Shown: piece after piece, positions 33,065-63,364 of the stretch | How the letters are laid out: every line of letters begins with the position of its first letter | Numbering within the stretch: the stretch's first letter is position 1 | Assembly (NCBI GenBank): GCA_019747795.1 | Contig: JAIEQK010000035.1 | Coordinates: 3,665-67,664 of the forward strand | Direction: 5' to 3' | DNA: 64,000 nt | From: Gammaproteobacteria bacterium | GTDB taxonomy: Bacteria; Pseudomonadota; Gammaproteobacteria; Ga0077536 | Notes under the pieces: model-generated | Told to the model about the DNA's origin: nothing | Databases searched by the model: none | What the model saw: the letters and a program-made list of their open reading frames with translations, nothing else | Made by a program: the position numbers and the translations under genes

Positions 33065-33957
33065 GGCGCGGTACGCGCGGCGCGGCGCGCGAGCCCGTGC
33101 TGCAAGGCCATCAGCACCACCACCAGCGCGAGCATTGCGATGGCGACCGCAGAGGCCACAGGCCAGGCGCGGTTGGCGAAGAACTCGTCCCACAGCACCT
33201 TGCCGATCATGAGCGTGTTCGAACCACCCAGCAGGTCGGGAATCACGAACTCGCCGAGGGCCGGAATGAACACCAGCGCGCTGCCCGCCAGTACCCCTGG
33301 CAGGGACAGCGGCAAGGTCACGCTGAGGAAGGCCCGCCAAGGCGGACAGCCGAGATCGGCGGCGGCTTCCAGGAGCGCGTGGTCGTGCTTCTCCAGATTG
33401 GCGTAGAGCGGCAGCACCATGAACGGCAGGTAGGAGTAGACGATGCCGAGATACACCGCGAAGTTGGTGCGCAACAGCGTGAGCGGCTGGTCGACGAGCC
33501 CGAGCGCGAGCAGGAGCTGATTGATCGTGCCCTGACTGTTCAGAAGGCCCATCCAGGCGTACACGCGCAGCAGGAAGGAGGTCCAGAACGGCAGCACCAC
33601 CAGCATCAGCAGCAGGTTGCGCCGCGCGGGCCGCGCGCGGGCGATGGCATAGGCCATGGGATAGCCGATCAGGAGACACAGGAGCGCGGAGACGAAGGCC
33701 ACCTGCACGGAGTTCAGGTAGGCGCGCCAGTAGAGCGCGTCCTCGACCAGGTAGCGATAGTTCGCGAGATGCAGCGCGAGGTGCAGGCCGCCGTCGGCGT
33801 CGCGCGAGAAGAGCGGGCTGTAGGGCGGCTGCGCGATCAGCTGCTCGGCGAAGGAGATCTTGAGCACGATGAGACAGGGCAGGGCGAAGAACAGGCCGAG
33901 CCACGCGTAGGGCACGAGGATCACGCCACGATGGCCGGCGTGTTCGCGGGCGTTCAT
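33061..33957 (-). CDS. potH: polyamine ABC transporter permease (PotB/PotH-like)
   Basis: The ATG at 33957 overlaps the ATPase stop (ATGA). The loop is LEAAADLGCPPWRAF. Confidence 0.85.
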   Translation of the reverse strand: MNAREHAGHRGVILVPYAWLGLFFALPCLIVLKISFAEQLIAQPPYSPLFSRDADGGLHLALHLANYRYLVEDALYWRAYLNSVQVAFVSALLCLLIGYPMAYAIARARPARRNLLLMLVVLPFWTSFLLRVYAWMGLLNSQGTINQLLLALGLVDQPLTLLRTNFAVYLGIVYSYLPFMVLPLYANLEKHDHALLEAAADLGCPPWRAFLSVTLPLSLPGVLAGSALVFIPALGEFVIPDLLGGSNTLMIGKVLWDEFFANRAWPVASAVAIAMLALVVVLMALQHGLARRAARTAP

Positions 33958-35093
33958 TGCGCGAGCAGCACGCCGCTGGTGGCGGACCAGCGCAGCCACA
34001 CGCGGTCGCCGCGCTCGAGGCTCGCCGCACCGTCGTCCGCGACGTTGGCGCGCGACACCTTCACGCCGCGGCCGGACGGCAGCACCACCTGGTAGAACGA
34101 TGCGCCGCCCTGGTAGGCCACTTCACGGATCACGCCCGCCACGCAGTTGGGGCCGCGCTCGACGGGTGACTCGCGCGCCATGACGAATTGCTCCGGGCGC
34201 AGGGCGAGCCACAGCGGACCACCCGGCGAGGGCGGCGTCGCGTTGCTGAGCAGGAGCGTGCAGTCGAGCTCCGTCGCGCGCAGGTGCAGGCCGTGCGCGT
34301 CGCGCTTCTCGAGCTCGACCTCGAACAGGTTGGTCGAGCCGACGAAGTCGGCCACGTGGCGGCTCCCCGGACGTTCGTAGATCTCGCGCGGCGTGCCGAC
34401 CTGCACGAGGCGTCCCTGGTCCATCACGCCGATGCGGGTCGCGAGTGTCATCGCCTCGGCCTGGTCATGGGTCACGACCACGAAGGTGATGCCGAGCGCC
34501 TGCTGGAGTTGCTTGAGTTCGAACTGGGTCGCTTCGCGCAGCTTGCGATCGAGCGCGCCGAGCGGTTCGTCGAGCAGCAGCAGGCGTGGTTGCTTGACGA
34601 GCGCGCGCGCCAGCGCCACGCGCTGGCGCTGGCCGCCGGACAGCTGGTGCGGACGCCGCCGCTCGAGTCCTTCGAGCTGCAGCAGTTCGAGCATCGCACC
34701 CACGCGCGCCTCGCGTTCGGCGCGCGGGCAGCGCTCCTGCTCGAGGCCGAAGGCGATGTTGTCGCGCACGTTCTTGTGCGGGAACAGCGCGTAGGACTGG
34801 AACATCATGTTGACCGGCCGGCGATGGGGCGGCAGCGCCGTGACGTCCACGCCGTCCAGCAGCACGCGCCCGGCGCTCGGCGCCTCGAAGCCGGCCAGCA
34901 TGCGCAGGAGCGTGGTCTTGCCGCAGCCCGAGCCACCCAGCAGGCAGAACAGCTCGCCGCGCGCGACGTCGAGCGAGACGTCGTCCACCGCGAGCTGCGC
35001 GCCGAAGCGCTTGCTCAAGCCCGCGATGCGCAGATGGGGCGCGCCGGTCTCGGCGAGCGTGGACGAATGCGACGCGCGCGCGGCCTGGTCCAT
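33954..35093 (-). CDS. potG: polyamine ABC transporter ATP-binding protein (PotA/PotG-like)
   Basis: Walker A is GGSGCGKTT, the signature is LSGGQRQR and Walker B is LLLDEP. A C-terminal TOBE-like region is present. Confidence 0.9.
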   Translation of the reverse strand: MDQAARASHSSTLAETGAPHLRIAGLSKRFGAQLAVDDVSLDVARGELFCLLGGSGCGKTTLLRMLAGFEAPSAGRVLLDGVDVTALPPHRRPVNMMFQSYALFPHKNVRDNIAFGLEQERCPRAEREARVGAMLELLQLEGLERRRPHQLSGGQRQRVALARALVKQPRLLLLDEPLGALDRKLREATQFELKQLQQALGITFVVVTHDQAEAMTLATRIGVMDQGRLVQVGTPREIYERPGSRHVADFVGSTNLFEVELEKRDAHGLHLRATELDCTLLLSNATPPSPGGPLWLALRPEQFVMARESPVERGPNCVAGVIREVAYQGGASFYQVVLPSGRGVKVSRANVADDGAASLERGDRVWLRWSATSGVLLAQ

Positions 35094-35096
35094 CGG

Positions 35097-36257
35097 CTAC
35101 TGGTGGGTCTTCACGCGCGTCCAGGCGCGGGTCAGCAGGCGGTCGAAGGCCGGCGTGTTGACCACGCTCGGGAACAGCGTCGCGCGCACCGCCTCGTCCG
35201 GGTACACCGACTTGTCGGCGGCGAGGGTCGGCTCCAGCAGTGGCGTGGAAGCGAGATTGGCGTTGGCGTAGCCGATGGTGTTGCTGATCGCCGCCGCGAC
35301 CTCGGCGCGCAGGATGTAGTCGATGAAGCGGTGCGCGTTCAGCGGATGGGGCGCGTCCTTGGGGATGGCCATGGTGTCGGCCGCGATCATCGCGCCTTCC
35401 CTGGGGATCACGTAGACAATCTCGGTGCCCTGGCCGGCTTCGCGCGCGCGGCTGCGCGCCTGGAACACGTCGCCCCCCCAGCCCATGGCCACGCACACTT
35501 CGCCGGCCGCGAGGTCGTTCAGGTACTGCGAGGAATGGAAGTAGCGCACCTGCGCGCGCATGGCGGCCAGCGCCTGTTCGACCTTGGCGAGATCCGCCTC
35601 GCTCTGGCTCCCGGTCGGCAGGCCGAGGTAGCGCAGCATCGCCGGCACCACTTCGCTCGGCGCGTCGAGCAGGCTGACGCCGCAGTCCTTGAAGTGCGCC
35701 ACCACCGCCGGGTCGAACAGCAGGCGCCAGCTGTCCACCGGCGCGTCCGGCATACGCTCGCGCACCTTGGCGACGTTGTAGCCGAAGCCGGTGGTGCTCC
35801 ACAGGTAGGGCACGGCGTAGCGGTTGTCCGGGTCGTAGGCCGCGAGGGTCTTCAGCATCGTCGGGTCGAGGTTGGCGTAATTCTTGAGCAGGCTGCGATC
35901 GAGCGGCTGGAACACGCCCGCCTGGATCTGGCGCGCGACGAAGTTGGCGGTCGGCACGACGATGTCGTAGCCGGTGTTGCCGGCCAGGAGCTTCGCCTCC
36001 AGCACCTCGTTGCTGTCGAACACGTCGTAGCGCACCTTGATGCCGGTCTCGCGCTCGAAGTTGGCGATGGTGTCCGGGGCGATGTAGTCGGACCAGTTGT
36101 AGACGTTGAGCACCGGCTCTTCGGCGCTCGGGGCAACGGCCGGCGCGGCGCTGTCCGCGCTCTTGGCCGGCTCGGCGTCGCCGCCGCCGCAGGCGGCGAG
36201 CAGCAGCAGGCAGGCGGCCGCGATGAAGTGGCGCAGGGCGAAGGGCAGGGCGGGCAT
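35097..36257 (-). CDS. potF: periplasmic polyamine (putrescine/spermidine)-binding lipoprotein (PotF/PotD/SpuD-like)
   Basis: Lipobox is LLLAAC. Contains LNVYNWSDYIAPDTIANFE. Confidence 0.85.
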   Translation of the reverse strand: MPALPFALRHFIAAACLLLLAACGGGDAEPAKSADSAAPAVAPSAEEPVLNVYNWSDYIAPDTIANFERETGIKVRYDVFDSNEVLEAKLLAGNTGYDIVVPTANFVARQIQAGVFQPLDRSLLKNYANLDPTMLKTLAAYDPDNRYAVPYLWSTTGFGYNVAKVRERMPDAPVDSWRLLFDPAVVAHFKDCGVSLLDAPSEVVPAMLRYLGLPTGSQSEADLAKVEQALAAMRAQVRYFHSSQYLNDLAAGEVCVAMGWGGDVFQARSRAREAGQGTEIVYVIPREGAMIAADTMAIPKDAPHPLNAHRFIDYILRAEVAAAISNTIGYANANLASTPLLEPTLAADKSVYPDEAVRATLFPSVVNTPAFDRLLTRAWTRVKTHQ

Positions 36258-36276: not shown

Positions 36277-37659
36277 TCAGGGATGAGCGTGCACAGCGGC
36301 GGCGGTGAGATCGAGGCAGCGCGCGACGAGCGTGATCATTTCATCGATCTCCGCGCGGGTCATGACCAGCGCCGGCGAGAGCACCATGGTATCGCCCACC
36401 GCGCGCATCACCAGGCCCTCCTCGAAGCAGATGTCGCGGCACACCGTGCCGACTTCGCCGACCGGCGCGTGGCGGCGGCGCGTGGCCTTGTCCTTCACCA
36501 GTTCGAGCGCGGCGATAAAACCGATGCCCCGCACTTCGCCGACCAGAGGGTGCGCGGCGAACTCGCGCAGCCGCGCCTGCAGGTAGGGGCCGGTGTCGTC
36601 GTGCACGCGCTCCACGAGACGCTCGTCCTCGAGGATGCGCAGGTTGCGCTCGGCGACCGCGCAGCAGGTCGGATGGCCGGAGTAGGTGTAACCGTGGTTG
36701 AACTCCCCGCCGTGCTCGATGAGCGTCGTGGCTACCTCGTCGGAGACCATCACGCCGCCTATGGGCAGGTAGCCCGAGGACAGGCCCTTGGCGATCACCA
36801 TCAGGTCTGGTGTCACGCCGAAGTGCTCGCACCCGAACCAGCGGCCCAGTCGGCCGAAGCCACAGATCACTTCGTCGCTCACCAGCAGCACGTCGTACTT
36901 GCGGCAGATGCGTTCGATCTCGGGCCAGTAGCTGTCCGGCGGCACGATCACGCCGCCCGCACCCTGCACGGGCTCGCCGATGAAGGCCGCCACGCGCTCC
37001 GGACCGAGCGCCAGGATGCGCTCTTCCAGCAGGCGCGCCGCGCGCAGGCCGAACTCCTCGGGCGACAGGTCGCCGCCGCGCTCGAACCAGTAGGGCGGGT
37101 CGATGTGTTCTATGCCCGGAATGGGCAGTCCGCCCTGGGCGTGCATGTAGGGCATGCCGCCCAGGCTCGCGCCGGCCATGGTGCTGCCGTGGTAGGCGAG
37201 CCAGCGGCTGATGATGATGTCCTTGCGCGGCCTATGGCGGGTCGCCCAGTAGTGCCGCACCAGGCGCACCACGGTGTCGTTCGCCTCCGAGCCGGAGCTG
37301 GTGAAGAACACGTGGTTCAGGTGCGGCGGCGTCAACGCGGCGAGCCGCGACGCGAGCGCGAGCGTCGGCGGCGTCGCGGTCTTGAAGAAGCTGTTATAGA
37401 AGGGCAGGGTCTGCATCTGCGCGCTCGCGGCCTCGGCCAGTTCGCGCCGGCCGTAGCCGACGTTCACGCACCAGAGGCCCGCCATGCCGTCCAGCAGGCG
37501 GCGCCCCTCGGAGTCCCACAGGTAGACGCCCTCGGCGCGGGTGATGATGCGCGCGCCGCGCGCGTGCAGCGCACGGCTGTCGGTGAAGGGATGCAGGTAG
37601 TGCTGCCGGTCCAGTGCCTGCCAGCCGGCGGTGTCGTGCAGCGAGGCGAGCGTGCTCAT
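36277..37659 (-). CDS. class III (omega) aminotransferase, polyamine:pyruvate type (SpuC-like)
   Basis: 460 aa. Contains GLWCVNVGYG and DEVICGFGRLG, and the PLP Lys context VIAKGLSSGY. Confidence 0.85.
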   Translation of the reverse strand: MSTLASLHDTAGWQALDRQHYLHPFTDSRALHARGARIITRAEGVYLWDSEGRRLLDGMAGLWCVNVGYGRRELAEAASAQMQTLPFYNSFFKTATPPTLALASRLAALTPPHLNHVFFTSSGSEANDTVVRLVRHYWATRHRPRKDIIISRWLAYHGSTMAGASLGGMPYMHAQGGLPIPGIEHIDPPYWFERGGDLSPEEFGLRAARLLEERILALGPERVAAFIGEPVQGAGGVIVPPDSYWPEIERICRKYDVLLVSDEVICGFGRLGRWFGCEHFGVTPDLMVIAKGLSSGYLPIGGVMVSDEVATTLIEHGGEFNHGYTYSGHPTCCAVAERNLRILEDERLVERVHDDTGPYLQARLREFAAHPLVGEVRGIGFIAALELVKDKATRRRHAPVGEVGTVCRDICFEEGLVMRAVGDTMVLSPALVMTRAEIDEMITLVARCLDLTAAAVHAHP

Positions 37660-37826: not shown

Positions 37827-39206
37827 CTAGAGGACGAAGTCCGTTGCGGTCAGGTTGTGCAGGCCCGCGAGGTCGATGCGGAAGTCGGCCTGGCGATCGC
37901 CGTTCACGTCACCCTCCACGGTGGTGCGATCGTTGGCCGTGCCGGCGGGGTTGGTGAAGAAAAACCGGAGATCGCCGGCCGTACCGTCGAATGCCGCCTT
38001 GCCGACGAACTTGAAGGCGTTGTTGGCGCCGCCGGTGATGGCGTCGATGCCGGACAGGTCGATGTCGTCGGTGCCGCGCAGGAAGTCCTTGATGAGGTCG
38101 CGGCCGTTGCTGGCCACGGTGCTCTCGCTCAACTGGTTGTAGTCGAAGATGTCGCGCGCCGCGCCGCCGCTGAGGGTGTCGCGGCCGCTGCCGCCGGTCA
38201 GGGTGTCGGTGCCATCACCGCCGTTCAAGGTGTCGTGGCCGGCCACGCCGAGCAGTCTGTCGTTGCCGTCGGCGCCCCCCAGTACGTTGTTGCCCTTGTT
38301 GCCGAGCAGCTGGTTGTTGCCGGTGTTGCCGGTGGCCTTGAGCGGTGCGACGCCGAGCAGGGTGGCGCTGCCGGCGCCCGCGCCCAAGGTGATGTTGCCG
38401 GAGGCCAGGATCTCGCTCGTGCCGGCCAGGTCGACCTTGACGTTGGCGTTGGCCGTGACGGTGACGTTCACCGCGCGGGCGAGGTCGCCGCCGCTGAACT
38501 CGACCACGTAGCTGCCGGCGTCGAGCGCGAGCGCATAGCCGCCGGCCGTGGCGGTGGTGGTGCTGTCCAGCGCGTTCCCTGCCTGCTTCGCGGTGACGCT
38601 GATGCCGGCGCGCTGCTCGCCGATGTCGTAGAAGTTGTCGCCGTCCGCGTCGGCGATGGCGACGCCGGTGATGAAGACCTGGTCGCCGCTGAAGGCGAAG
38701 TTCTGGGTGGCGAGCAGCGAGTCGAAGTTGGTGCCGCTGTCCTGGAAGCCACCGCGCTTGAGGCCGATGCCGAGCTCCTGGAAGTCCTCGAACAGGATGT
38801 TCTCGCGGTGCGGCGGGCTGACGAACAGGCCTTCGTGCTCGTCGAGGGTGAAGCCCGTGAGATTGAAGCCGTTGCCCGTAGTGCCCTGGAAGGCGATGTT
38901 CTCACCCGACGCGGCCGGCGGCGTGAACACGTAGCCGGCCAGTTCCATGCGGCTCTGCGGTGTGCCGTCGCCGATGCCCTCGTGCTCGAACAGGTCGACA
39001 TCGATCATGTGCTGGCTGTGGGCGCGCGCGGCGTCCACCAGCAGCAGGTTGCCGGCCAGCACCTGCTTGGCGGTGGCGGTCAGCGTGCCGGCCGCGAGGC
39101 CCTGGTTCAGATCGATGCCGAAACGCGCCGCTTCCCCCTTGGGATCGAGGCGGGCGCGATTGACGAGTTCGAGCATCAGCTGCTCTTGCACCGTGAACTG
39201 GGCCAT
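37827..39206 (-). CDS. secreted CAP/SCP-domain protein with RTX Ca-binding repeats and serralysin-type C-terminal secretion domain
   Basis: Internal ATG (cat 39204..39206). The CAP region is ELVNRARLDP...AHSQHM...GENIAF. The nonapeptide repeats are GGADGNDRLLGVAGHDTLNGGDGTDTLTGGSGRDTLSGG. The C-terminus is ...GDVNGDRQADFRIDL...TATDFVL. Confidence 0.75.
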   Translation of the reverse strand: MAQFTVQEQLMLELVNRARLDPKGEAARFGIDLNQGLAAGTLTATAKQVLAGNLLLVDAARAHSQHMIDVDLFEHEGIGDGTPQSRMELAGYVFTPPAASGENIAFQGTTGNGFNLTGFTLDEHEGLFVSPPHRENILFEDFQELGIGLKRGGFQDSGTNFDSLLATQNFAFSGDQVFITGVAIADADGDNFYDIGEQRAGISVTAKQAGNALDSTTTATAGGYALALDAGSYVVEFSGGDLARAVNVTVTANANVKVDLAGTSEILASGNITLGAGAGSATLLGVAPLKATGNTGNNQLLGNKGNNVLGGADGNDRLLGVAGHDTLNGGDGTDTLTGGSGRDTLSGGAARDIFDYNQLSESTVASNGRDLIKDFLRGTDDIDLSGIDAITGGANNAFKFVGKAAFDGTAGDLRFFFTNPAGTANDRTTVEGDVNGDRQADFRIDLAGLHNLTATDFVL

Positions 39207-39371
39207 GGGCACTCCTGCGTGAACGATGACGCTATGGTCGCGCGAAGTGTAATGCCGCGTCTGCGAAGCGTTGCAAACAACCGTGGCTTGCGGCACGCAT
39301 TGCCGATCGCGCGGTCGAACCACGAGGCCGGGAGCGCGACGAACCCGGCTGCCAGGGACTAGACTTTGACC

Positions 39372-39863
39372 ATGACCCGCCATCCACCTCCGTTGTTCGC
39401 CGCCGTGCTGGCCACGGCGCTCGCCGCGCCGGTGGGCGCGGTGACCGTGCACACCTGGGTGGACGAGCAGGGCGTGACCCATTTCGCCGACGCGCCGCCC
39501 GGCGGGGCGCAGCCATCAAACGAAGTGGAAGTGGACGAGGGGCCCATGGACGCGCGGGCGGAGGACGACTACTACTCCATCGTGAACCAGTGGCAGCGGC
39601 TGCGCGCCGAGCGCGAGGCGCAGGACGCGCTGGCGCTGGAGCGCGATCGCCTGGACGCCGAGCGCGCGCCGTCACCGCCGGTGGCGCCGACGCCAGCGCC
39701 CGAGGACGACCCGATGTTCCTATCGCCGTACTACGGTTTCGGCGCCGGGCGCTACCCGGGGCACCATCACCACCCGCCGCCGCTGGAGGATTACAGCGGA
39801 CCGCCGTCGCCGCCCGGGTCCTTCGTCAACATCAAGCCGCCGACCTGGCCCAGCCGGCGCTGA
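39372..39863 (+). CDS. DUF4124 domain protein with Pro-rich C-terminus
   Basis: A signal peptide is followed by VHTWVDEQGVTHFADAPP, which is typical of DUF4124. The ATG at 39372 is used; the track start at 39366 is TTG. Confidence 0.7.
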   Translation: MTRHPPPLFAAVLATALAAPVGAVTVHTWVDEQGVTHFADAPPGGAQPSNEVEVDEGPMDARAEDDYYSIVNQWQRLRAEREAQDALALERDRLDAERAPSPPVAPTPAPEDDPMFLSPYYGFGAGRYPGHHHHPPPLEDYSGPPSPPGSFVNIKPPTWPSRR

Positions 39864-47597: not shown

Positions 47598-47737
47598 GAT
47601 TCTCCCCCTGGGTGGTGTTGTAACTCGCCTCGAATCAACGACAATACGGCGACGTACGGCGTGCATCTTCGCCCGCCGCCGTGGCCGCAGCCGAGGAGTG
47701 CCCATTGAACCTTCTGAACCACAATTCCTTCAAGGAC

Positions 47738-49135
47738 ATGATGAACGACGTGGTGGACCACGGCAGTTGCTGCGAATGCGGCTCCTGCGTGGTGGTCTGC
47801 CCGCACAACGTCATCGAGTACATCGATGGCAAGCCGAAGCAGACCGCGAAGGAATCCGCCGCCTTTGATTTCTGCGGCGTCAGCGAGGGCGCCGGCTGCG
47901 ACGTGTGCGCGACCGCCTGCCCGCGCCTGTGGCCGCGCGAGTCCCACCTGAAGGACGCGGTGTTCGGCCCGGGGCCCGAGCGGGGCTTCGAGGACATCTT
48001 CGGCGTGTTCAAGCACATCTTCGTCGCCCGCACCAAGCGGCCGGACCTGGCCGAGGCCGGGCAGGACGGCGGCATCGTCACCGCGCTGCTCGCCTGGGCG
48101 CGCGAGACCGGGCGCATCGACGGCGCGGTGGTGTCCGCGGTGGGTGCCGAGGACAAGCCCTGCTTCCCGACTCCCAAGGTCGTCACCACCTACGACGAGA
48201 TCAAGTCCAGCGCCGGCAGCTGGTACACCTACTGCGCGAACAATCTCGCGCTGAACGAAGTCGAGGAGCGTGACCTCAAGCAGGTCGCCTTCGTCGGCGT
48301 GCCCTGCCAGATCACGCCGCTGCGCAAGATGGAGCACATGGATCCGAGCTTCCTGGTGCGCGATGCCAAGAAGCCGAAGATCATCGGTCGCCAGCGCGGC
48401 TTCCTGCGTGGCTACAGCGATCGCGTGGCGTTCAGCGTCGGCCTGTTCTGCACCGAGGTCTTTCAGCCCGAGCTGATGACCGAGAGGATCGAGAAGCAGA
48501 TGGGCATTCCGCTGACCGAGATTCGCCAGTTCAACGTCAAGGGCGAGGTGCTCATCTACCGCAAGAACGGCGACATCGGCCGCATTCCGCTCGAAGAGGC
48601 GATGCACGAGTACCAGCGTCCGGAGTGCAAGCACTGCGGCGACTTCTCCGCCGAGATGGCCGACATCGCCTGCGGTGGCGTCGGCACCGATCGCGCCACC
48701 ATCGTCGTGCTGCGCACCGAGAAGGCGGTCGAGATCTGGCGCGAGTTCCAGGCGACCGGCGAGGTCGAGGTCGAGCCGATCAAGGACAACAAGCGCGCGT
48801 GGAACGTGCTGCTGCGCCTCGCGCGCCGTCAGCGCGAGCGCCCGCCCATCGGTACCGCCCGCGGCGGCGCCGCGCCGGACCTGCCGCAGTACGACAAGGG
48901 GCAGGACCGCGCGCTCGCGCTGTCGCGCCTGACCGGCAAGCTGTCGCCGGCCGAGGTCGAGGCGAATCTCGCCGCCGCCTACGGCGACGAGTCCGCGCCG
49001 CCGGAGATCATGGGCTACATCGCCGGTACCCCGATTCCAGGCGACCCGGGCGATCCGGGCGCGGGCGAGAAGCGCAAGCTGCCACCGCCGCTGTCGCCCG
49101 AAGCGGGCGGCGCGCCGCCCGGCTGGACCGGCTGA
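47738..49135 (+). CDS. FrhB/FdhB-family (coenzyme F420 hydrogenase/dehydrogenase beta-like) Fe-S flavoprotein with Pro/Gly-rich C-terminal tail
   Basis: Two ferredoxin-type Cys clusters are present (CCECGSCVVVCP; CDVCATACP). FrhB_N/C-like motifs are QDGGIVTALL and VAFVGVPCQI...CKHCGDFSAEMADIACGG. The ATG at 47738 is used; a GTG at 47681 is also possible. Confidence 0.75.
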   Translation: MMNDVVDHGSCCECGSCVVVCPHNVIEYIDGKPKQTAKESAAFDFCGVSEGAGCDVCATACPRLWPRESHLKDAVFGPGPERGFEDIFGVFKHIFVARTKRPDLAEAGQDGGIVTALLAWARETGRIDGAVVSAVGAEDKPCFPTPKVVTTYDEIKSSAGSWYTYCANNLALNEVEERDLKQVAFVGVPCQITPLRKMEHMDPSFLVRDAKKPKIIGRQRGFLRGYSDRVAFSVGLFCTEVFQPELMTERIEKQMGIPLTEIRQFNVKGEVLIYRKNGDIGRIPLEEAMHEYQRPECKHCGDFSAEMADIACGGVGTDRATIVVLRTEKAVEIWREFQATGEVEVEPIKDNKRAWNVLLRLARRQRERPPIGTARGGAAPDLPQYDKGQDRALALSRLTGKLSPAEVEANLAAAYGDESAPPEIMGYIAGTPIPGDPGDPGAGEKRKLPPPLSPEAGGAPPGWTG

Positions 49136-56506: not shown

Positions 56507-57121
56507 TCAGGTCGCCGGCATCTTCAGGTCGTGAAGATACTTCTTCAAGCCGTTGATCGAGGACCGAAAGATGCCGCAATCCTGAGAGTTCTTCGCAAGT
56601 CCCACGGCGCCCTGCAGCGACGCGATGACGAAGTAGGCGACCTCGTTCGCATCGACCTCCGGCCGCAGCAGACCGCGCTGCTGGGCGCCGGCCAGGGCGT
56701 TCTGCACCGCGCGATGCCAGCGCCGATAGACGCGCTCGATGCGCTGGCGAAAGCCCTCGTCCAGCGGCGACATCTCCTGCGCCAGGTTGTTGATCGGGCA
56801 GCCACAGGCGAGGCGCTGGCCGGCGAGGAACTGCTCTTCTTCGTCGAGCAGGCGGCAGATGCCCTCGATGGGATCCTCCGCGCTGAGCGCCGCGTCCCAG
56901 GCCGCCACCGCGCGGGGGGCGAGCACGTCGTCCAAGACCGCGTAGCCGAGCTCTTGCTTGCTGGCGAAATGGTGATAGAGCGCGCCCTTGGAGATCCCCA
57001 GCCGCTTCAGCATCTCGCACAGCGAGGCGGACTGGTAACCGACCCGGTAGATCTCCTCGGCGGCGGCCTCGAGGATCTTCTCGCGGGTCACTTCGGCCTT
57101 GAGGTCGCGTTGTGTCACCAT
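56507..57121 (-). CDS. TetR/AcrR family transcriptional regulator
   Basis: Internal ATG (cat 57119..57121). The HTH is ILEAAAEEIYRVGYQSASLCEMLKRLGISKGALYHHFASK. Confidence 0.85.
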   Translation of the reverse strand: MVTQRDLKAEVTREKILEAAAEEIYRVGYQSASLCEMLKRLGISKGALYHHFASKQELGYAVLDDVLAPRAVAAWDAALSAEDPIEGICRLLDEEEQFLAGQRLACGCPINNLAQEMSPLDEGFRQRIERVYRRWHRAVQNALAGAQQRGLLRPEVDANEVAYFVIASLQGAVGLAKNSQDCGIFRSSINGLKKYLHDLKMPAT

Positions 57122-57176: not shown

Positions 57177-58034
57177 TCAGGGCGCCGACTGCTCGGTCGG
57201 CGGACGCGTGTTCGCGTTGGGTATGAACAGCTGACGACCCTGGGGCCGGAACGCGGCAATGGCGGCCTGGCCCTCCGTGCCGAGCAACCAGTCCTGCAGG
57301 CGGCGGGCTTCGACCGCATGCACGTGCGGATGGCGTCGTGGGTCGACCAGGATCAGGCTGTACTGGTTGCGCAGCGCCGGGTCGCCGGACAAGAGTTCAG
57401 CCAGCCCCTGGCGGTCGGTATAGGTCGCCCAGCTCGCGCTGTCGGTCAGCGTGTAGGCGCCGAGTTCGCGCGCCACGTTGAGCGTCGACAACATGCCGCT
57501 GCCGGTGTCGCGGTACCAGCGCTGGAGCGCGGGGTCCGGGCTGTGGCCCGCGGCCTTCCACAGTGCCTGCTCGCGCACATGGGTGCCGCTCAGATCGCCG
57601 CGGGAGGCGAACAGCGCGCCGTGAACGGCAATACGTCGAAAGGCCTCGGCGGCATCCGGCGCGCCGCGCACGCCGGCCGGATCTTTCACGGGTCCGACCA
57701 GCACGAAGTCGTTGTACATCAGGGGTTCGCGGGCCAGGCCTTCGCCGTCGGCGATGAAGCGCGCCTCGGCATCCGGGGCGTGGACCAGGGCGAGATCGCC
57801 GTTACCCGCCCGGCAGTTGGCGAGCGCCTGCCCGGTGCCGACCGCGATGACGTGGACCTCGATGCCGGTCGCGGCGGTGAAGCGGGGCAGCAGGGCGTCG
57901 AACAATCCCGACGCCTGGGTGGAGGTGGTGGACTGCAGCAGCAGGTAGGACCTGTCGGCGGCCTGCGCCGCCAGCGCCAGCAGGGCGAGCAGCGCGCCGA
58001 GGGCGCGCCGCCACGCGAACTCAGTCGCGCGCAC
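57177..58034 (-). CDS. periplasmic oxyanion-binding protein, TupA (tungstate)-like, without cognate ABC permease/ATPase
   Basis: Signal peptide is ALLALLALAAQA. Contains STTSTQASGLFDALLP...VIAVGTGQAL...DLALVHAP, resembling the TupA TTTS-motif family. Confidence 0.7.
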   Translation of the reverse strand: MRATEFAWRRALGALLALLALAAQAADRSYLLLQSTTSTQASGLFDALLPRFTAATGIEVHVIAVGTGQALANCRAGNGDLALVHAPDAEARFIADGEGLAREPLMYNDFVLVGPVKDPAGVRGAPDAAEAFRRIAVHGALFASRGDLSGTHVREQALWKAAGHSPDPALQRWYRDTGSGMLSTLNVARELGAYTLTDSASWATYTDRQGLAELLSGDPALRNQYSLILVDPRRHPHVHAVEARRLQDWLLGTEGQAAIAAFRPQGRQLFIPNANTRPPTEQSAP

Positions 58035-58602
58035 CGCCCGCGGCCCGCCGCGAGAGGTCGACCAGCAGCGTGCCGATCACCGCGCCCACCGCACCGAAGC
58101 CGAAGTGGGTCATGATCGAGAACAGCGGGCCATGGCGCAGCTTGCCGAGATGCAGCTGCACGCCATGGGCGAGCAGGTAGACCGCGAGCGGCTTCAGCAT
58201 GAAGGCGACGCCGCCGGTCAGCGCGACCAGTGCGAGGTGCCGGCTGCGACGCAGGCCGGCAAGCCACGCGCCGTCGACCGCCAGCGCGCAGAGCCCGTAG
58301 ATTGGCGCCTGCATGCTGGCGCCCGCGCCGTGCGCGAGCAGCGCGATGGTGCCCACGTAGCCCGCGGCGGTGGTGACCGCCGCCCAACGCATGTTCGACC
58401 CGTTACGCGCCACCATCACGCCGGCCATCCACACCAGGCCGTAGTGGCCGGGCAGGCCCAGGTCGATGTCCCAGGCGCGATGGCCGAAGGCCAGCAGCGC
58501 GCCCAGGCCGAGCAGCGCGAGCAGGTGGCCGAGGCCCGCCTGCTCAGGGACGGAAGCGCTTGATGCGCTGCTTGTCTGCGACGACGTAATCGTGCGAGCC
58601 AT
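58021..58602 (-). CDS. hypothetical integral membrane protein (about 5-6 TM)
   Basis: 193 aa, with a hydrophobic profile and high GC3. It overlaps both neighbours (14 nt and 59 nt). No family recognised. Confidence 0.55.
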   Translation of the reverse strand: MARTITSSQTSSASSASVPEQAGLGHLLALLGLGALLAFGHRAWDIDLGLPGHYGLVWMAGVMVARNGSNMRWAAVTTAAGYVGTIALLAHGAGASMQAPIYGLCALAVDGAWLAGLRRSRHLALVALTGGVAFMLKPLAVYLLAHGVQLHLGKLRHGPLFSIMTHFGFGAVGAVIGTLLVDLSRRAAGGARD

Positions 58603-59362
58603 CTGTCGTGTTCTCCACCAAAAGTACCGAAAGTCCGCCCACGCGTACCGGCCGTGCCCAGTCGCCGAGCGTCACCCGCGCCGTGTCCGGCAGGCAGTCG
58701 CCGACCGTGTCACTGTTGAACGTGCGCACTGCGTCCAGGCCGGTCTGCGCGCGCAGCGCGCCGACTTCGTGCACGCCGCCACCGAGTTCGCGCAGTCGCT
58801 TCAGCCACAGGTACCGGCCGTCGTCGCCCTGCATGAACAAACCCACCCCGGCCAGCGCGCCGATGATACCGCCGTGGGTGCCCGTCAGTCCCGTGAGACG
58901 GATGCCGGCCGCTGCCGCGGTCGCGCGCGCCCGTTCGCGGTCCAGCACTTCGCGCTGCGCCGAGAGCGCGTAGTCGACGACGCGCGCGGCGGCGTCTGGT
59001 GTCGCCACGCACAGACCGACGTCCGCACCGACCGCCGCGACTTCCAGCAGGAATTCGCGGCAGTAGGTTTCGACTTCATCCTCGGACGCGCGCGCGGCGA
59101 GTTGCAGGCAGGCCGAGCTGTTGTGCGAGGTGTAGGGAATGCGCGGGTCGACCAGCAGCTGATGGCGCGTGATGCCGCGCATCTCGGCGAGGCCGGCGTC
59201 GGCCAGGCCGCGCGCCAGCGTGCGGGCGCGATAGCCCGTGCCGCGCGTGTCGAGATTGTCGGTGTCGTCGATGCCGACCAGCAGATCGATGCCGGCGGCC
59301 GACGTCCGCGCGAGCGCGGGATTCATCGTGGGAGCCTTGCCATGGGTGGCATTGTCTTGCAC
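58544..59362 (-). CDS. protein resembling the N-terminal kinase-type domain of archaeal TiaS (DUF1743-like), lacking the OB/Zn-ribbon parts
   Basis: LLVGIDDTDNLDTRGTGY, LLVDPRIPYTSHNSS and THGGIIGALAGVGL parallel the TiaS segments GIDDTDS..G.CTTY, LNPNIPYKTRGNG and GRGLIGALAAVG as I recall them. The track start is GTG at 59362; an ATG at 59326 is an alternative. Confidence 0.55.
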   Translation of the reverse strand: MQDNATHGKAPTMNPALARTSAAGIDLLVGIDDTDNLDTRGTGYRARTLARGLADAGLAEMRGITRHQLLVDPRIPYTSHNSSACLQLAARASEDEVETYCREFLLEVAAVGADVGLCVATPDAAARVVDYALSAQREVLDRERARATAAAAGIRLTGLTGTHGGIIGALAGVGLFMQGDDGRYLWLKRLRELGGGVHEVGALRAQTGLDAVRTFNSDTVGDCLPDTARVTLGDWARPVRVGGLSVLLVENTTDGSHDYVVADKQRIKRFRP

Positions 59363-59376
59363 GTAAGGCGCATGCG

Positions 59377-62139
59377 CTAGAGCAGTTCGAGATCGAAACC
59401 GAGATAGAGAAAGCGCCCGGCCTGCGGCAGGCCGTAGGCTTCGGCATAGGACTCGTCCAGCACGTTGTCCGCGCCGACGAAGACCTTCAGCCGCGGCGTG
59501 CCGAGCGGCCGCGCCACGCGCAGGTTGAGCAGCGCATAGGGCGACAGCATGCGCGTGCGCGGCGGGCCGAAGCGCGAGAAGTAGAACTCGCCGCCGACGA
59601 ACTGGAAGCTCGCGCTCGCCAGGGTGCCGTCGTCGAAGCGCTGACTGGCCTGCGCCGCCACCTTGTGCCTGGGCCGGTACTGGAGCTCGTCGCGCAGCGA
59701 GGCGTCGGAACGATCGCGGGCGTGCAGGTAGGACCAGGACGCCGCCAGCTCGCGCCCACCGGCGAGCGCCGCCCGCGCCGCGAGTTCCAGACCTTGAAAG
59801 CGGAAGCGCTGGTTGTTGGCGAACTCCTCGGTCACCGGATCGCGGTCGATGAAGTTCTCCACGTCGCTGCGGAACAGCGTCACTCCGAGCACCGCCGGCG
59901 CCAGGCCCGCGTACTCGGCGCCGAGTTCATAGGTCATCGCGCGCTCCGGCGCGAGTTCGGGGTCACCGGACAGCGTGTCGTAGAGCTGCTGCACCGAGGG
60001 CAGACGCAGCTTGCGCGCGAAGCCGGCGCGCAGCCGCAGGTCAGGCGTCACCGCCCGCGACAGGCCGCCGGAGAAGCTGCCGTGCACTTCGCTCGCGCCG
60101 TCGTCGCGCTCGAGCCAGTGCACGGCGTAGCCGAACACCACGTCCACCCAGCCGAGCGGCGCGGCACTGAGTTCGAGCGCGCTGCTCGCGATGTGCAGCG
60201 TGCGCGACTGGCTGAAGGGGCGCAGATCGAAGGTCACGGCGTCGAAGCGCGTCGGCGTGCCGCCGCCCGAGCCGTCGCCACCGCTGCCGCAGCCAGTGCC
60301 GGCCGGCGGTACGTTGACGACCGGCGTGGTGTCCGGCGGCTGCGCGCCGGTCAGCGCGGTGGCGCTGGTGGGCGCGACCAGGAACACCGCCAGACCGCCG
60401 GGGCCGCCGGTCGGCGGCTCGGACGGACCCCAGAAGCCGTTCGCGTCGACCTGGCGAAGTTCCAGTGCGGCGTAGGCGGGCGGGCGGCCGCCGCTGCTGG
60501 TGGCGGAGAAGCGCAGCAGTTCGGCGAGCGTCGCGCGCTCGTAGGTCCAGCGCGCGGTCTCGCCGTCGAACAGCGGATCGGCCGCGCCGTTGGCGCCGCC
60601 GGGACGCTGCCAGCCGATACGCGCGCGGAAGCGGTAGTTGTTGATCACGTCGCCCGCACCGGGGGCGGCGAAGGCGCTGGCGTTGCCGGTGCTCGCATCG
60701 CTGGTGGGGTCGTAGAGCAGGTTCCAGTCGCTGATGTCGAGGCCCTGGTCGGGCAGCAGGTAGAGGCGCGACGCGTAGGCCGCGGGCACCGCCGGCCCCG
60801 AGCCGCCGTTGACGAAGAAATTGCCGGCCGCGAGGCTCTTGAAGCTGAAGTCGACGCCGCCGCGCCCGTTGTCGGTCATGGTCAGGCTCGCGATCGGCTC
60901 GTTGTCGCCGGCCGCGTTGGTCGCGCCGAAGTTGTTGGTCGCGAGGTAGTTGAACAAGAGCGTGGCGCTGGTCGCGTTGCCGAGAGTGACGGGGCGCGGC
61001 CTGGTCGGCGGCGGCAGGCGTGGCACGTCGCGGGTCAGGCAGTCCTGGCTGAAGTGCTCCTGGCGCGCCTCTACCATCCAGGTCAGCGCGCCGCCCCAGT
61101 CGTGGGCGAGGCTCAGCTCGTTGTGGAATCCGAATACCCGCGAGTCGGCGTCGTCGGCGAAGGTGCCGCGCACGTGCGGGTCGTCGAGCCGGGGCGCGAA
61201 CGGTGAGCTGTAGCGGTTGGTGTTCTCGGCCAGGGTGTTGACGTAGGCCCAGCCGCGGTCGGCGAGCCGGCCGTCCGGGTCCCACTCGAAGCCGGCCTGC
61301 AGCGACAGGGTCTCGTCGTCGTCCACGCGCTGCCAGCGCGGACGGTTGGCGAAGCCGTCGGCCTCGTCGTCCACCACCGTGCCGGGCGCGCCGAAGCCGC
61401 CGCGACTGTAGGTGAAGGTGCCGCCGAGGGCGAGATCGTCGTTCACCCGGTGCCAGCCGTTCAGGTAGGCGTGGTTGCGTTCGCGATCGCTGTTGGCGCG
61501 CAGGCCGCCGTGCTCGAGGCTGGTTTCGCGCAGGTTGGCCGAGAGCGGAAAGCCGTCGCGCGCGTTCCGTCCGGCCGCGGCGAACACGCCGCTGGTCTCG
61601 CTGCCCCAGCCATAGGTGCCGTACACGCGATGGTGATCGCCGCTGCCGTATTCGGCGTGGGTCGTGGCACTCTGGCCCGGCTCGGCCTGGCGCGTGATGA
61701 CGTTGATGACCGCACCGACCGCGCCGTCGCCGTAGAGCGTGGAGCTCGCGCCGGTGGTGAGCTTGATGCGCGCGATGTTCTCCGCCGGGATGAGCGTCGG
61801 GTCGAACTGGCCGTCGAAGGTGTTGCCGAAGGGCACGCCGTTCAAGAGCAGCTTGACCTGGCGGGTGCGGTAGCCGCGCACGTCGATGCGCGGGCTGCCG
61901 TTGCCGCCGGTGCGGACGTTGAGTCCGGGCAGCAGCTCGAGCGCATCTTCGAGGCTGCGCGCGCCGCGCAGCTCGATGTCGGCGCGGTCCACCGAGTACA
62001 CGGTGGCGACGCGCTCGACGGTCGGCTGGCGCGCGCTCACCACCACTTCGTTCAGGCCGTCGGGGGCGTTCGCGGCGTGCGCCGAGCGCATGCCGAGCAG
62101 CAGGAGCGCCAGGCTCAAAATCGGAAGAAGCCTGCACAT
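59377..62139 (-). CDS. TonB-dependent outer-membrane receptor with about 260-aa insertion
   Basis: The ATG at 62139 gives the signal peptide MCRLLPILSLALLLLGMRSAHA. Plug motifs are VVVSA, IELRGARSLEDALELLPG and IDVRG. The C-terminal barrel ends LGFDLELL. Confidence 0.85.
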   Translation of the reverse strand: MCRLLPILSLALLLLGMRSAHAANAPDGLNEVVVSARQPTVERVATVYSVDRADIELRGARSLEDALELLPGLNVRTGGNGSPRIDVRGYRTRQVKLLLNGVPFGNTFDGQFDPTLIPAENIARIKLTTGASSTLYGDGAVGAVINVITRQAEPGQSATTHAEYGSGDHHRVYGTYGWGSETSGVFAAAGRNARDGFPLSANLRETSLEHGGLRANSDRERNHAYLNGWHRVNDDLALGGTFTYSRGGFGAPGTVVDDEADGFANRPRWQRVDDDETLSLQAGFEWDPDGRLADRGWAYVNTLAENTNRYSSPFAPRLDDPHVRGTFADDADSRVFGFHNELSLAHDWGGALTWMVEARQEHFSQDCLTRDVPRLPPPTRPRPVTLGNATSATLLFNYLATNNFGATNAAGDNEPIASLTMTDNGRGGVDFSFKSLAAGNFFVNGGSGPAVPAAYASRLYLLPDQGLDISDWNLLYDPTSDASTGNASAFAAPGAGDVINNYRFRARIGWQRPGGANGAADPLFDGETARWTYERATLAELLRFSATSSGGRPPAYAALELRQVDANGFWGPSEPPTGGPGGLAVFLVAPTSATALTGAQPPDTTPVVNVPPAGTGCGSGGDGSGGGTPTRFDAVTFDLRPFSQSRTLHIASSALELSAAPLGWVDVVFGYAVHWLERDDGASEVHGSFSGGLSRAVTPDLRLRAGFARKLRLPSVQQLYDTLSGDPELAPERAMTYELGAEYAGLAPAVLGVTLFRSDVENFIDRDPVTEEFANNQRFRFQGLELAARAALAGGRELAASWSYLHARDRSDASLRDELQYRPRHKVAAQASQRFDDGTLASASFQFVGGEFYFSRFGPPRTRMLSPYALLNLRVARPLGTPRLKVFVGADNVLDESYAEAYGLPQAGRFLYLGFDLELL

Positions 62140-62227
62140 TTTAGGCGAGGAGGGCGTCAAGTATCCTGGGCTCGGCGGGTTGCGCACACTACCGACGTGA
62201 CGGCGCCGTCCTCAATCAGCATAGTCG

Positions 62228-62240
62228 TTCATATATGGAA
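62228..62240. promoter_or_regulatory. AT-rich near-palindrome TTCATATATGGAA in divergent promoter region
   Basis: It is the only AT-rich element between the TBDR and the ModE-type regulator. The core CATATATG is palindromic. It is followed by the hairpin ccgtggccc-tcc-gggccgcgg. Confidence 0.35.
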
Positions 62241-62299
62241 GCCGTGGCCCTCCGGGCCGCGGGAACAGGAGTCCGTGTGACCAGCCCTTCCCTCTACCC

Positions 62300-63364
62300 A
62301 TGGGCACGCCCATGAAGATCGGCCTCGCGCTCGCCTGGCGCATCGAACTCGATGGTGTGGAGTACGACCTCGAACCATTGCTGTTCGATCTTCTGGCCGC
62401 GGTCGAGAAGGGCGGTCATCTGAACTATGCCTCGCGCGCCACCGAGGTCTCCTACCGTCACGCCTGGGGACTGATGCGCACCTGGGAGGCTCGCTTCAAG
62501 GCGCCGCTGGTCGACCTGCAGCGCGGCCGCGGCGCGACCCTCACTGACATTGGCCGCGCGCTGCTTGAGGCGCGCGAACGGGCCCAGCTCGCGACCGGGC
62601 CGACGCTCGCCGACGCCGCAGGTGAGGCCGGAGGGCGCCTGCAGCAGAGCATGGGCGATGCGCGCGTCACGCTCCGGGTCGCGTCCAGTCATAGCGATCT
62701 CCTGACCGGCCTGGTCGACGCCCTGGACGCCTCGCGCTGGCAGGCGGTGCTGGACGTCATCGGCAGCGAGGCCGCGCTGCGGCGCTACCAGCGCGGCGAC
62801 ATCGATATCGCCGGATTCCATCTGCCGCTCGGCGAACTCGGACCGACCGTCGGGCTCAACCTGCTGGCCCTGCTGGACGACGCGCGCGACCAGGTCTTCC
62901 TGCTGGAGATGCGCGCCCTGGGCCTGGTCTCATCGCCCCAGGCGCCCGTGACCACGCTCGAGGCGCTGCCGGGAAGCGCGCTCCGCTTCATCAATCGACA
63001 GCCGGGATCCGGCACGCGCCTCGTGTTCGACGGACTGCTCGGGCTGCGCGGCATCGCGCCCGGCGCCATCCTGGGCTATCGCAACGAGGAGTACACCCAC
63101 TCGGCGGTGGCGGCGATGGTGGCGAGCGGCGGCGCCGACGCGGGCTTCTGCACCGCCAGCGCGGCGGCCCGTTTCGGGCTGCACTTCCAGCCTTTCGTGC
63201 AGGAGCGCTTCTACCTCTGTCTACGGCGCTCGGCACGGCGCGAGCTCGTCGAAGCCGTCACGAGCTATGTCGCGAATGCGCTGAACGCCGGTGCCACGCC
63301 CCGCAGCCTGAACGAGGTGCAGCCCGGCGTCGCGCTGCTGCGACGCCTGCACACCTCGCTCTGA
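62300..63364 (+). CDS. transcriptional regulator with ModE-type N-terminal wHTH and PBP-like (type II periplasmic-binding-fold) ligand domain
   Basis: GHLNYASRATEVSYRHAWGLMRTWE resembles the ModE HTH (...ISYKSAWDAI...). The C-terminal part has FINRQPGSGTR and a PBP-like pattern. An alternative ATG is at 62312. Confidence 0.7.
   Translation: MGTPMKIGLALAWRIELDGVEYDLEPLLFDLLAAVEKGGHLNYASRATEVSYRHAWGLMRTWEARFKAPLVDLQRGRGATLTDIGRALLEARERAQLATGPTLADAAGEAGGRLQQSMGDARVTLRVASSHSDLLTGLVDALDASRWQAVLDVIGSEAALRRYQRGDIDIAGFHLPLGELGPTVGLNLLALLDDARDQVFLLEMRALGLVSSPQAPVTTLEALPGSALRFINRQPGSGTRLVFDGLLGLRGIAPGAILGYRNEEYTHSAVAAMVASGGADAGFCTASAAARFGLHFQPFVQERFYLCLRRSARRELVEAVTSYVANALNAGATPRSLNEVQPGVALLRRLHTSL

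Follow-up and report, generated by a model that had tools for sequence, protein, structure and literature searches.

A putative tungsten/molybdenum-responsive acquisition locus centred on a conserved pair of a TiaS-like enzyme and a small membrane protein

Tungsten- and molybdenum-dependent (W/Mo) enzymes include formate dehydrogenases, members of the AOR family and reductases of the nitrate and dimethyl sulfoxide types, and they contribute to carbon, nitrogen and sulfur cycling, to the formation of short-chain fatty acids in the gut and to CO2-reduction biocatalysis. To our knowledge, only three uptake systems for these metals are established, ModABC, TupABC and WtpABC, all of which are of the ATP-binding cassette (ABC) type. 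In the binding protein DaG20 TupA, the oxyanion site is formed by T9-T11, S12, H59, R118, T124 and D170 (PMC5517513). At the level of regulation, TaoR, a tungstate-responsive protein that combines a helix-turn-helix (HTH) with a PBP-like domain, regulates tungsten AOR as well as tup and mod transport genes (PMC11980592, PMC12327845). Among small membrane carriers, the solitary S-components BioY and BtuM, which are of energy-coupling factor (ECF) type, transport alone, BtuM working behind BtuB, and the S-component fold is also found in bacterial receptors (PMC11109136). Here, a locus is described that shares features with each of these systems. It lies at 57177-63364 of a 64,000-nucleotide stretch of a gammaproteobacterial contig (JAIEQK010000035.1), hereafter referred to as the window, and encodes a TonB-dependent receptor (TBDR), a TiaS-like protein (TIA), a six-helix membrane protein (TM), a TupA-family periplasmic binding protein (PBP) and a divergent regulator (REG). 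With a probability of about 0.5, this locus is a W/Mo-responsive acquisition operon built around an undescribed two-protein core, TIA-TM, whilst PBP, TBDR and REG belong to, or are closely related to, known families.

The conservation of the locus was assessed across 83 loci (individual loci carry labels such as L001), using our own open reading frame (ORF) calls and family hidden Markov models (HMMs), for which the gene calls of databases served as a check. A 90%-clustered protein database contains more than 4,700 matches to the TIA family, nearly all annotated as 'hypothetical', and the species-level reference genomes that encode TIA number at least 586. TM adjoins TIA in 78 of the 83 loci, where it lies downstream and usually overlaps by ~50-60 nt. 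A third partner tracks the cell envelope, being a TBDR in diderms and a ~157-aa lipoprotein (LIPO) in Chloroflexota and Gram-positives. Thus, TBDR is present in 36 of the 42 proteobacterial loci and in 18 of the 19 loci from Bacteroidota/Chlorobiota, with LIPO in neither group, while 16 of the 17 Chloroflexota loci carry LIPO and none a TBDR; among six other loci (Firmicutes, Actinomycetes, Acidobacteriota), LIPO occurs in four and TBDR in one. This exchange according to envelope type is an argument for a core that acts on something from outside the cell. LIPO itself has no Pfam match and no meaningful match among PDB sequences, only its signal peptide being recognised. What is deeply conserved is TIA-TM, accompanied by a TBDR where the cell is diderm and by a lipoprotein where it is monoderm. 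The full five-gene set, with a TetR gene downstream, is limited to the close relatives of the window (L001, L005 and L006), so that the conservation anticipated in the preliminary description applies to the TIA-TM core and not to the neighbourhood as a whole. No description of the TIA-TM pair was found in Pfam, NCBIfam or the literature searched, although the regulon tables of Kazakov 2013 and Rajeev 2019 could mention it.

The four minus-strand genes of the window are tightly packed. A 14-nt gap separates the TBDR gene (59377-62139, 920 aa) from the TIA gene (58544-59362, 272 aa, with an alternative ATG start at 59326), which overlaps the TM gene (58021-58602, 193 aa) by 59 nt, and the latter in turn overlaps the PBP gene (57177-58034, 285 aa) by 14 nt. 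The REG gene (62300-63364, plus strand, 354 aa, with an alternative ATG start at 62312) is divergent. The coordinates and junctions given in the preliminary description were confirmed in the sequence, and its domain calls, namely a TBDR, a TiaS-like protein, a TupA-like PBP and a regulator joining a ModE-like winged HTH to a PBP fold, hold by profile and structure searches. The GC content at third codon positions (GC3) of the five ORFs is 0.84-0.92, which is of the coding type and, in a genome of ~70% GC, fits real genes. No terminator-like hairpin was seen between the minus-strand genes in a scan of the locus. Such tight packing is not due to chance, since the TIA-TM overlap of ~50-60 nt recurs across phyla. 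In the window, the same 59 nt (58544-58602) are read in two frames, giving TIA its last 19 codons and TM its first 19, so that TM is predicted to be translationally coupled to TIA, and a GGAG lies 10 nt 5' of the TM start ATG (58602). The corresponding N-terminus of TM, 'MARSITSS.TSSAS', is kept among relatives and is disordered in the structural model, with a predicted local distance difference test score (pLDDT) of <55; its conservation is probably due to the dual coding with TIA.

The association with tungsten and molybdenum rests on the genes that surround this core. In raw counts made within 10 kb of TIA in 82 loci, without a formal background rate, at least one W/Mo gene lies near TIA in 56 of the 82 and in 36 of the 52 loci that are at least 15 kb long. 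A TaoR/ModE-type regulator is found in 41 of the 82 loci; 19 have a TupA in which the site is intact, and 13, mostly from Chloroflexota, a TupB-like permease with an ABC ATPase. The gene order in Chloroflexota is REG-LIPO-TIA-TM-TupA-TupB-TupC, and tupB and tupC stand directly beside TIA-TM-TupA in 11 of the 17 loci of this phylum, contrary to the anticorrelation with tupBC that had been predicted; TupBC also adjoins the module in L018 and L019. Immediately upstream of the module, 10-13 gammaproteobacterial loci encode an FdnGHI-like formate dehydrogenase together with a TorD-type chaperone; 5-6 loci have MoaA and MoeA near TIA, and MoaC and MoaB are also met beside the module. AOR-family genes (AFOR_N 157 bits, AFOR_C 319 bits) are present near TIA in five Bacteroidales loci. 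One of the Bacteroidales chromosomes (L068) carries a same-strand array of AOR, ModE-HTH, TIA, TM, a lipoprotein, TBDR, a secreted protein, MoeA, MoaA, MoaC and MOSC/MoaB, in which the module is the sole transporter candidate. The recurrence of such varied types of W/Mo gene in three phyla (Proteobacteria, Bacteroidota and Chloroflexota) is difficult to explain by chance. The earlier W/Mo hypothesis is consequently well supported by genomic context, whilst transport, trapping or processing of W/Mo by the module can only be inferred.

Two further observations concern the surroundings of the module. An NAD-dependent aldehyde dehydrogenase is encoded a few kb away in both Gammaproteobacteria and Bacteroidales (L007:17084-18667, minus strand; L009, L010, L018, L019, L054, L067 and L071); that it acts as a tungsten-independent backup of AOR under the same regulation is pure speculation. 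Separately, a stand-alone TBDR-TIA-TM core (L085:10827-18768) is followed immediately downstream by an OmpR/HisKA two-component pair and a CzcB/CusB-type resistance-nodulation-division (RND) efflux system, which may be coincidental or may point to a wider involvement of metals.

The closest described relative of TIA is TiaS, the archaeal tRNA(Ile2) agmatidine synthetase, with its TCKD kinase domain. The N-terminal ~155 residues of TIA share with it the fold, a GIDDTD motif and a G.IGALAAVG helix. The TIA family profile matches the TCKD of TiaS (3amt) over ~150 residues (E=8e-8), and the AlphaFold2 (AF2) model of TIA (pLDDT 89) matches 3amu in Foldseek (E=3.5e-9) with a root-mean-square deviation of 2.2 A over 153 columns. 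Invariant residues D32/D33/D35 and T42 of TIA align with D8/D9/D11 and T18 of TiaS, which we take to be the Mg/ATP site and the autophosphorylated threonine, respectively. This correspondence suggests that TIA has probably retained an ATP-using active site. A second tier of Foldseek matches (E~1e-2) consists of the pterin pyrophosphokinase HPPK. In other respects the two proteins differ. H67, H80 and C101 are invariant in TIA and C85 and C118 are present in at least 90% of the sequences, yet none of these five positions is found in TiaS, and the C-terminus of TIA is a beta domain of its own (~90 aa) without a match among PDB sequences, conceivably an oxyanion domain of TOBE/Mop-like type. Scores against the TiaS-type models lie below their cut-offs (NCBIfam NF040849, 26.6 against 600; Pfam PF22641, 21.4 against 27). 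An identity as a true TiaS was rejected, TIA having 272 aa compared with ~420 aa and lacking the FLD, OB-fold and Zn-ribbon tRNA-binding domains. Moreover, TIA is bacterial, is coupled to a membrane protein and is encoded amid transport and W/Mo genes, and the wide distribution of its family overturns the earlier assumption that TiaS-type domains are confined to archaeal tRNA modification. A small membrane carrier paired with a cytoplasmic ATP-using enzyme, as in PnuC-NadR or RibU with riboflavin kinase, would give directional uptake. The likeness of TIA-TM to these pairs is a functional analogy only, drawn from gene order, and the folds are unrelated, TIA having a TCKD and the known enzymes being of the P-loop or ribokinase types.

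The partner of TIA, described earlier as a small permease candidate, is modelled by AF2 as a six-helix protein (pLDDT 84). In Foldseek it comes closest to YkoE, an S-component (5edl; TM-score 0.61/0.59, probability 1.0, E=0.07), followed by PanT and RibU (entries 4rfs_S, 3p5n and 5kbw). On this structural evidence, TM would be an ECF S-component-like inner-membrane protein. It could not be placed in a described S-component sequence family, as it has no match in Pfam or NCBIfam and none among PDB sequences at E<=10. The family comprises 270 representatives at 50% identity, all of ~190 aa, and an exhaustive family search returned no fusions to other domains, TIA included; its conserved positions are rich in His and Asp. 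In two loci from Anaerolineae (L026:4715-8726 and L028:10001-14015), genes for a fused double ABC ATPase and CbiQ/EcfT are inserted between TIA and LIPO-TM, and LIPO has an N-terminal membrane anchor in place of the lipobox. Both loci look like a complete ECF-type transporter with TM as the S-component, which supports this role for TM, and the retention of TIA beside EcfAA'T argues that TIA is not merely an energiser. The window has no ECF module, and neither do most loci. In its size (~190 aa) and its six helices TM resembles known S-components, and the combination of a TBDR with a solitary TM recalls BtuB-BtuM. Unlike known S-components, however, TM has an obligate partner encoded by an overlapping gene, and its presumed substrate is inorganic.

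PBP, in contrast, is readily placed. It carries a signal peptide and the STTSTQASGL motif which the preliminary description had associated with tungstate, and it matches solved TupA structures over ~250 residues (5my5 from D. alaskensis, E=2e-60; 3lr1 from G. sulfurreducens, E=1e-56), in addition to the Pfam family PBP_like_2 (PF12849, E=7e-32). Its score against the TupA equivalog NF041772 is 203 bits, under the cut-off of 400. At the aligned site positions it reads S-T-T-S, VHAP, SRGDLSGTH and TLTD, and is thereby identical to DaG20 TupA at T10, T11, S12, H59, R118, T124 and D170, only T9 being replaced by S. Judged by these residues, PBP is a member of the TupA family whose tungstate site is intact, and belongs to the first of two classes into which module-linked PBPs fall. 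The second class is found in 12 proteobacterial loci (L007-L012, L022, L023, L027, L031, L043 and L050; for example L009:11270-12127, minus strand) and is no more than a distant relative of TupA (E~1e-5). These proteins are missing the TTTS/R/T/D oxyanion site and have His-rich IAHAH and RHEHAG at the aligned positions; their ligand is possibly a cation or a complex, and the ligand may accordingly differ across the family. A comparison with TupABC shows both likeness and difference. The window PBP is a full-length TupA homologue with the TTTS-type motif present as STTS, and a TupA/TupB/TupC set adjoins the TIA-TM pair in the Chloroflexota relatives. However, neither the vicinity of PBP in the window nor most PBP-carrying proteobacterial loci contain TupB or TupC partner genes, and the operon partners here are instead a TBDR, an S-component-like TM and a TCKD enzyme.

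TBDR has the features of a TonB-dependent receptor, as predicted from its plug (PF07715, E=5e-23), its barrel (TonB_dep_Rec_b-barrel, PF00593, E=4e-25), a signal peptide and an EVVVSA motif resembling a TonB box. It scores under every NCBIfam equivalog cut-off, the top match being the BtuB-type TIGR01779 (165 against 600 bits), with NF007926 at 129 bits against 836. An assignment as BtuB was rejected on account of these low scores together with the absence of an Rfam cobalamin riboswitch match in 55.5-64 kb. An insertion of ~270 aa (residues ~373-660, nt 60160-61023, minus strand) with a Gly/Pro/Thr-rich end sits between the plug-proximal and C-terminal parts of the barrel and has no Pfam match. 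It is found only in the receptors of 910-1030 aa encoded in L001, L006, L007, L009, L010, L018, L019 and L050, the remaining module-linked TBDRs being 665-740 aa long and free of it. Secreted proteins accompany some of these receptors. A ~227-aa protein with a weak PEP-CTERM-like end is encoded directly upstream of long-type TBDRs (L009:12195-12926, L010, L011, L012 and L050). In Bacteroidota, a ~310-aa lipoprotein without a Pfam domain lies between TM and TBDR in 17 of the 19 loci (for example L068:11290-12222), and a ~281-aa protein with a type IX secretion system (T9SS) sorting tail, likewise without a Pfam domain, follows TBDR (L068:14352-15197 and 11 other loci); both may be surface capture proteins. 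Common ancestry of the Bacteroidales T9SS-tailed protein, the gammaproteobacterial 227-aa protein and the TBDR insertion was considered and rejected (hhalign probability 7%, no cross-matches).

REG matches PBP_like (PF12727, E=1e-40), HTH_1 (E=8e-5) and ModE_repress (TIGR00637, E=1.7e-7), and by this domain composition it is a TaoR-type regulator, in which a predicted ModE-like winged HTH is followed by a PBP-like ligand domain. It differs from ModE in being without TOBE/Mop domains, while the neighbours of the TaoR/ModE family in Bacteroidota carry the HTH part only (~123 aa). Nothing in the literature searched links TunR to tungstate. The 160-nt region between REG and the divergent minus-strand genes contains an AT-rich palindrome, CATATATG (62230-62237), situated between the two divergent starts. 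It had been described as the sole such element there, and it holds the only ATATAT in the whole window; it is a candidate operator or -10 region. No match to a sigma-70 consensus was found in the intergenic region. Elements of the form CATATAT(G/C)A, or resembling ATGAT-T-ATCAT, are present between REG and the genes divergent from it in L001, L009 and L011, which is suggestive of a shared AT-rich element. As for control by RNA, an Rfam scan of 55.5-64 kb matched no family, even at relaxed thresholds, and 13 regulator-less loci had no riboswitch at the gathering score. Control by molybdenum cofactor (Moco), cobalamin or thiamine pyrophosphate (TPP) riboswitches is excluded by these scans in that part of the window and in those 13 loci.

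The order of the genes, their folds, the conserved motifs and the genomic associations are observed, and a series of functional steps can be inferred from them. TBDR would take a W/Mo species, either trace free oxyanion or a chelate, over the outer membrane with TonB energy. In the periplasm, tungstate or molybdate would very probably be captured by PBP, given that the named site residues are conserved. PBP would then pass its ligand to TM, whose modelled fold is consistent with carriage through the inner membrane, solitarily in this genome and with EcfAA'T in a few Chloroflexota. On the cytoplasmic side, TIA would trap or activate the incoming species with ATP via its TiaS-type kinase site, an action that would give directionality and feed cofactor assembly and in which the family-specific Cys/His cluster may take part. 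Finally, REG, which has the architecture of an oxyanion sensor of this type, would sense cytoplasmic oxyanion via its PBP-like domain and control both promoters, possibly at CATATATG. A more far-reaching proposal is that TIA-TM constitutes a fourth, mechanistically new W/Mo route beside ModABC, TupABC and WtpABC, in which an S-component-type carrier is joined to a TiaS-type kinase that activates or traps the oxyanion or a W/Mo complex with ATP, for instance through phosphorylation of an oxo group and transfer to its own Cys/His site. This proposal is tentative, and we regard it as doubtful.

A number of points weigh against W/Mo acquisition by the module. No W/Mo neighbour is present in 26 of the 82 loci, and some TBDR-TIA-TM cores stand alone. 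For a small oxyanion, neither a TBDR nor an S-component would have a precedent, and the likeness of TM to S-components is structural only (TM-score ~0.6), without sequence-level support. In Chloroflexota the module and a complete TupABC share an operon, a redundant arrangement if tungstate were imported by both. The 12 proteobacterial loci whose His-rich PBP is missing the oxyanion site are also difficult to accommodate, and the conserved His/Asp residues of TM and Cys/His residues of TIA would equally suit a metal cation. In addition, tupBC genes elsewhere in this genome may serve PBP.

The redundancy with TupABC disappears if the substrate is an organic, vitamin-like compound related to the W/Mo cofactor (a pterin or Moco precursor) or a metallophore, which TBDR captures (with the surface lipoprotein in Bacteroidota), TM imports and TIA traps by phosphorylation, in the manner of ThiD or NadR, while TupA or TupABC brings the metal separately. 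A TBDR with a surface lipoprotein and an S-component is the classic layout for a scarce organic cofactor, and YkoE, to which TM is most similar in structure, is a thiamine-precursor S-component. The kinase fold of TIA, with HPPK in the second tier, and the absence of an oxyanion site from class 2 PBPs agree with this as well. Nevertheless, salvage of this kind is unlikely. The Bacteroidales arrays hold MoaA and MoaC for de novo synthesis in the same operon, and we know of no bacterial uptake of Moco, molybdopterin (MPT) or cyclic pyranopterin monophosphate (cPMP). The HPPK likeness is weak and may reflect a generic alpha/beta fold, Moco, TPP and cobalamin riboswitches were found neither in 55.5-64 kb of the window nor in the 13 other loci, and the orphan class 1 TupA of the window would be left partnerless. 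A different solution to the presence of TupBC in Chloroflexota, L018 and L019, where TIA-TM cannot be its replacement, is that TIA is a cytoplasmic enzyme of W/Mo cofactor maturation, storage or selectivity, anchored or regulated by TM, with transport left to a TupBC or ModBC encoded elsewhere that also serves the orphan TupA. The Mo storage protein MoSto provides a parallel, as it combines a kinase fold with ATP-dependent handling of molybdate, and the conserved Cys/His cluster of TIA could bind W/Mo. This appears rather improbable in view of the strict exchange of TBDR for a lipoprotein by envelope type, which points to a substrate from outside, the insertion of ECF modules into the pair in L026 and L028, the lack of another transporter in the Bacteroidales arrays and the transporter-type fold of TM.

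Signalling in place of transport has also to be considered, with TM as a receptor of S-component fold that controls TIA as an autophosphorylating TCKD kinase, which in turn modulates a ModE-type HTH protein. The TCKD of TiaS autophosphorylates Thr18, and the aligned Thr42 is invariant in TIA; the regulator adjacent to the module in Bacteroidota is HTH-only and without a sensor domain. The S-component fold is, besides, common to bacterial receptors (PMC11109136). Proteobacterial and Chloroflexota regulators, however, have a ligand domain of their own, many loci are without any regulator, no known output domain is present, and the ECF ATPase and T genes of L026 and L028 indicate transport, which makes a signalling pair very unlikely. 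We would be more surprised still to find an ordinary uptake locus for cobalamin, a siderophore or a metal cation, with the W/Mo signals a coincidence. It could be argued for from the top NCBIfam matches of TBDR, which are BtuB and siderophore receptors, from the known pairing of BtuB with a solitary BtuM, from the suitability of the His/Asp-rich positions of TM and of class 2 PBPs for cations, and from the Czc/Cus-type RND system adjoining L085. Yet all of the TBDR scores are far under the family cut-offs, a cobalamin riboswitch was found neither in 55.5-64 kb nor in the 13 other loci, the TupA site of PBP is complete, and varied W/Mo genes recur beside the module in three phyla.

Should W/Mo acquisition by the module prove correct, it could explain how these metals are supplied where ModABC, TupABC and WtpABC are lacking or the metal is picomolar, and may show how W/Mo passes over the diderm outer membrane and how W is discriminated from Mo before cofactor insertion. 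The TiaS kinase fold would gain a second role, outside tRNA, and the S-component fold a new type of partner. On the more far-reaching proposal, no small-molecule or inorganic substrate would have preceded that of TIA for the TCKD fold, and no S-component before TM would have had an obligate partner enzyme, either replacing or added to the ECF module. The module would represent W/Mo-regulated uptake of a trace nutrient, and its TIA-TM core could prove mechanistically new. Cultured carriers of TIA, Herminiimonas glaciei and Oxalicibacterium faecigallinarum, make the W/Mo hypothesis directly testable.

Beyond the five genes, the PBP gene is followed 55 nt downstream on the same strand by a TetR-family gene (56507-57121, minus strand; TetR_N E=1e-12, TetR_C_13 E=6e-17), which NCBIfam marks as AcuR/ScbR-like. 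As it also follows PBP in L001, L005 and L006 and is missing in other lineages, it is possibly a sixth member of the unit in this clade only. The remainder of the window was scanned with custom HMMs for TupB-type permeases, formate dehydrogenases (FDH), MoaA and MoeA. No tupBC- or modBC-type genes, Moco genes or Mo/W enzymes were found in the 64 kb, and none of the remaining large ORFs has a connection with Mo/W. The earlier statement that the window contains no ABC permease or ATPase is literally incorrect, holding only for the tupBC/modBC type, as one ABC system is encoded at ~32.2-36.3 kb on the minus strand. This sole ABC transporter is of the putrescine (Pot) type and is unrelated to the uptake module; it consists of a PotI-like permease (from 32255), a PotG-like ATPase (33954-35093) and a PotF-like binding protein (35097-36257), and is adjoined by a class-III aminotransferase (36277-37659, minus strand). 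Two other genes are not linked to the module: one at 37827-39482 (minus strand) encodes a 551-aa protein with RTX/serralysin-type calcium-binding repeats, and one at 47681-49135 (plus strand) encodes a member of the FrhB/FdhB family, resembling the beta subunit of F420 hydrogenase/dehydrogenase.

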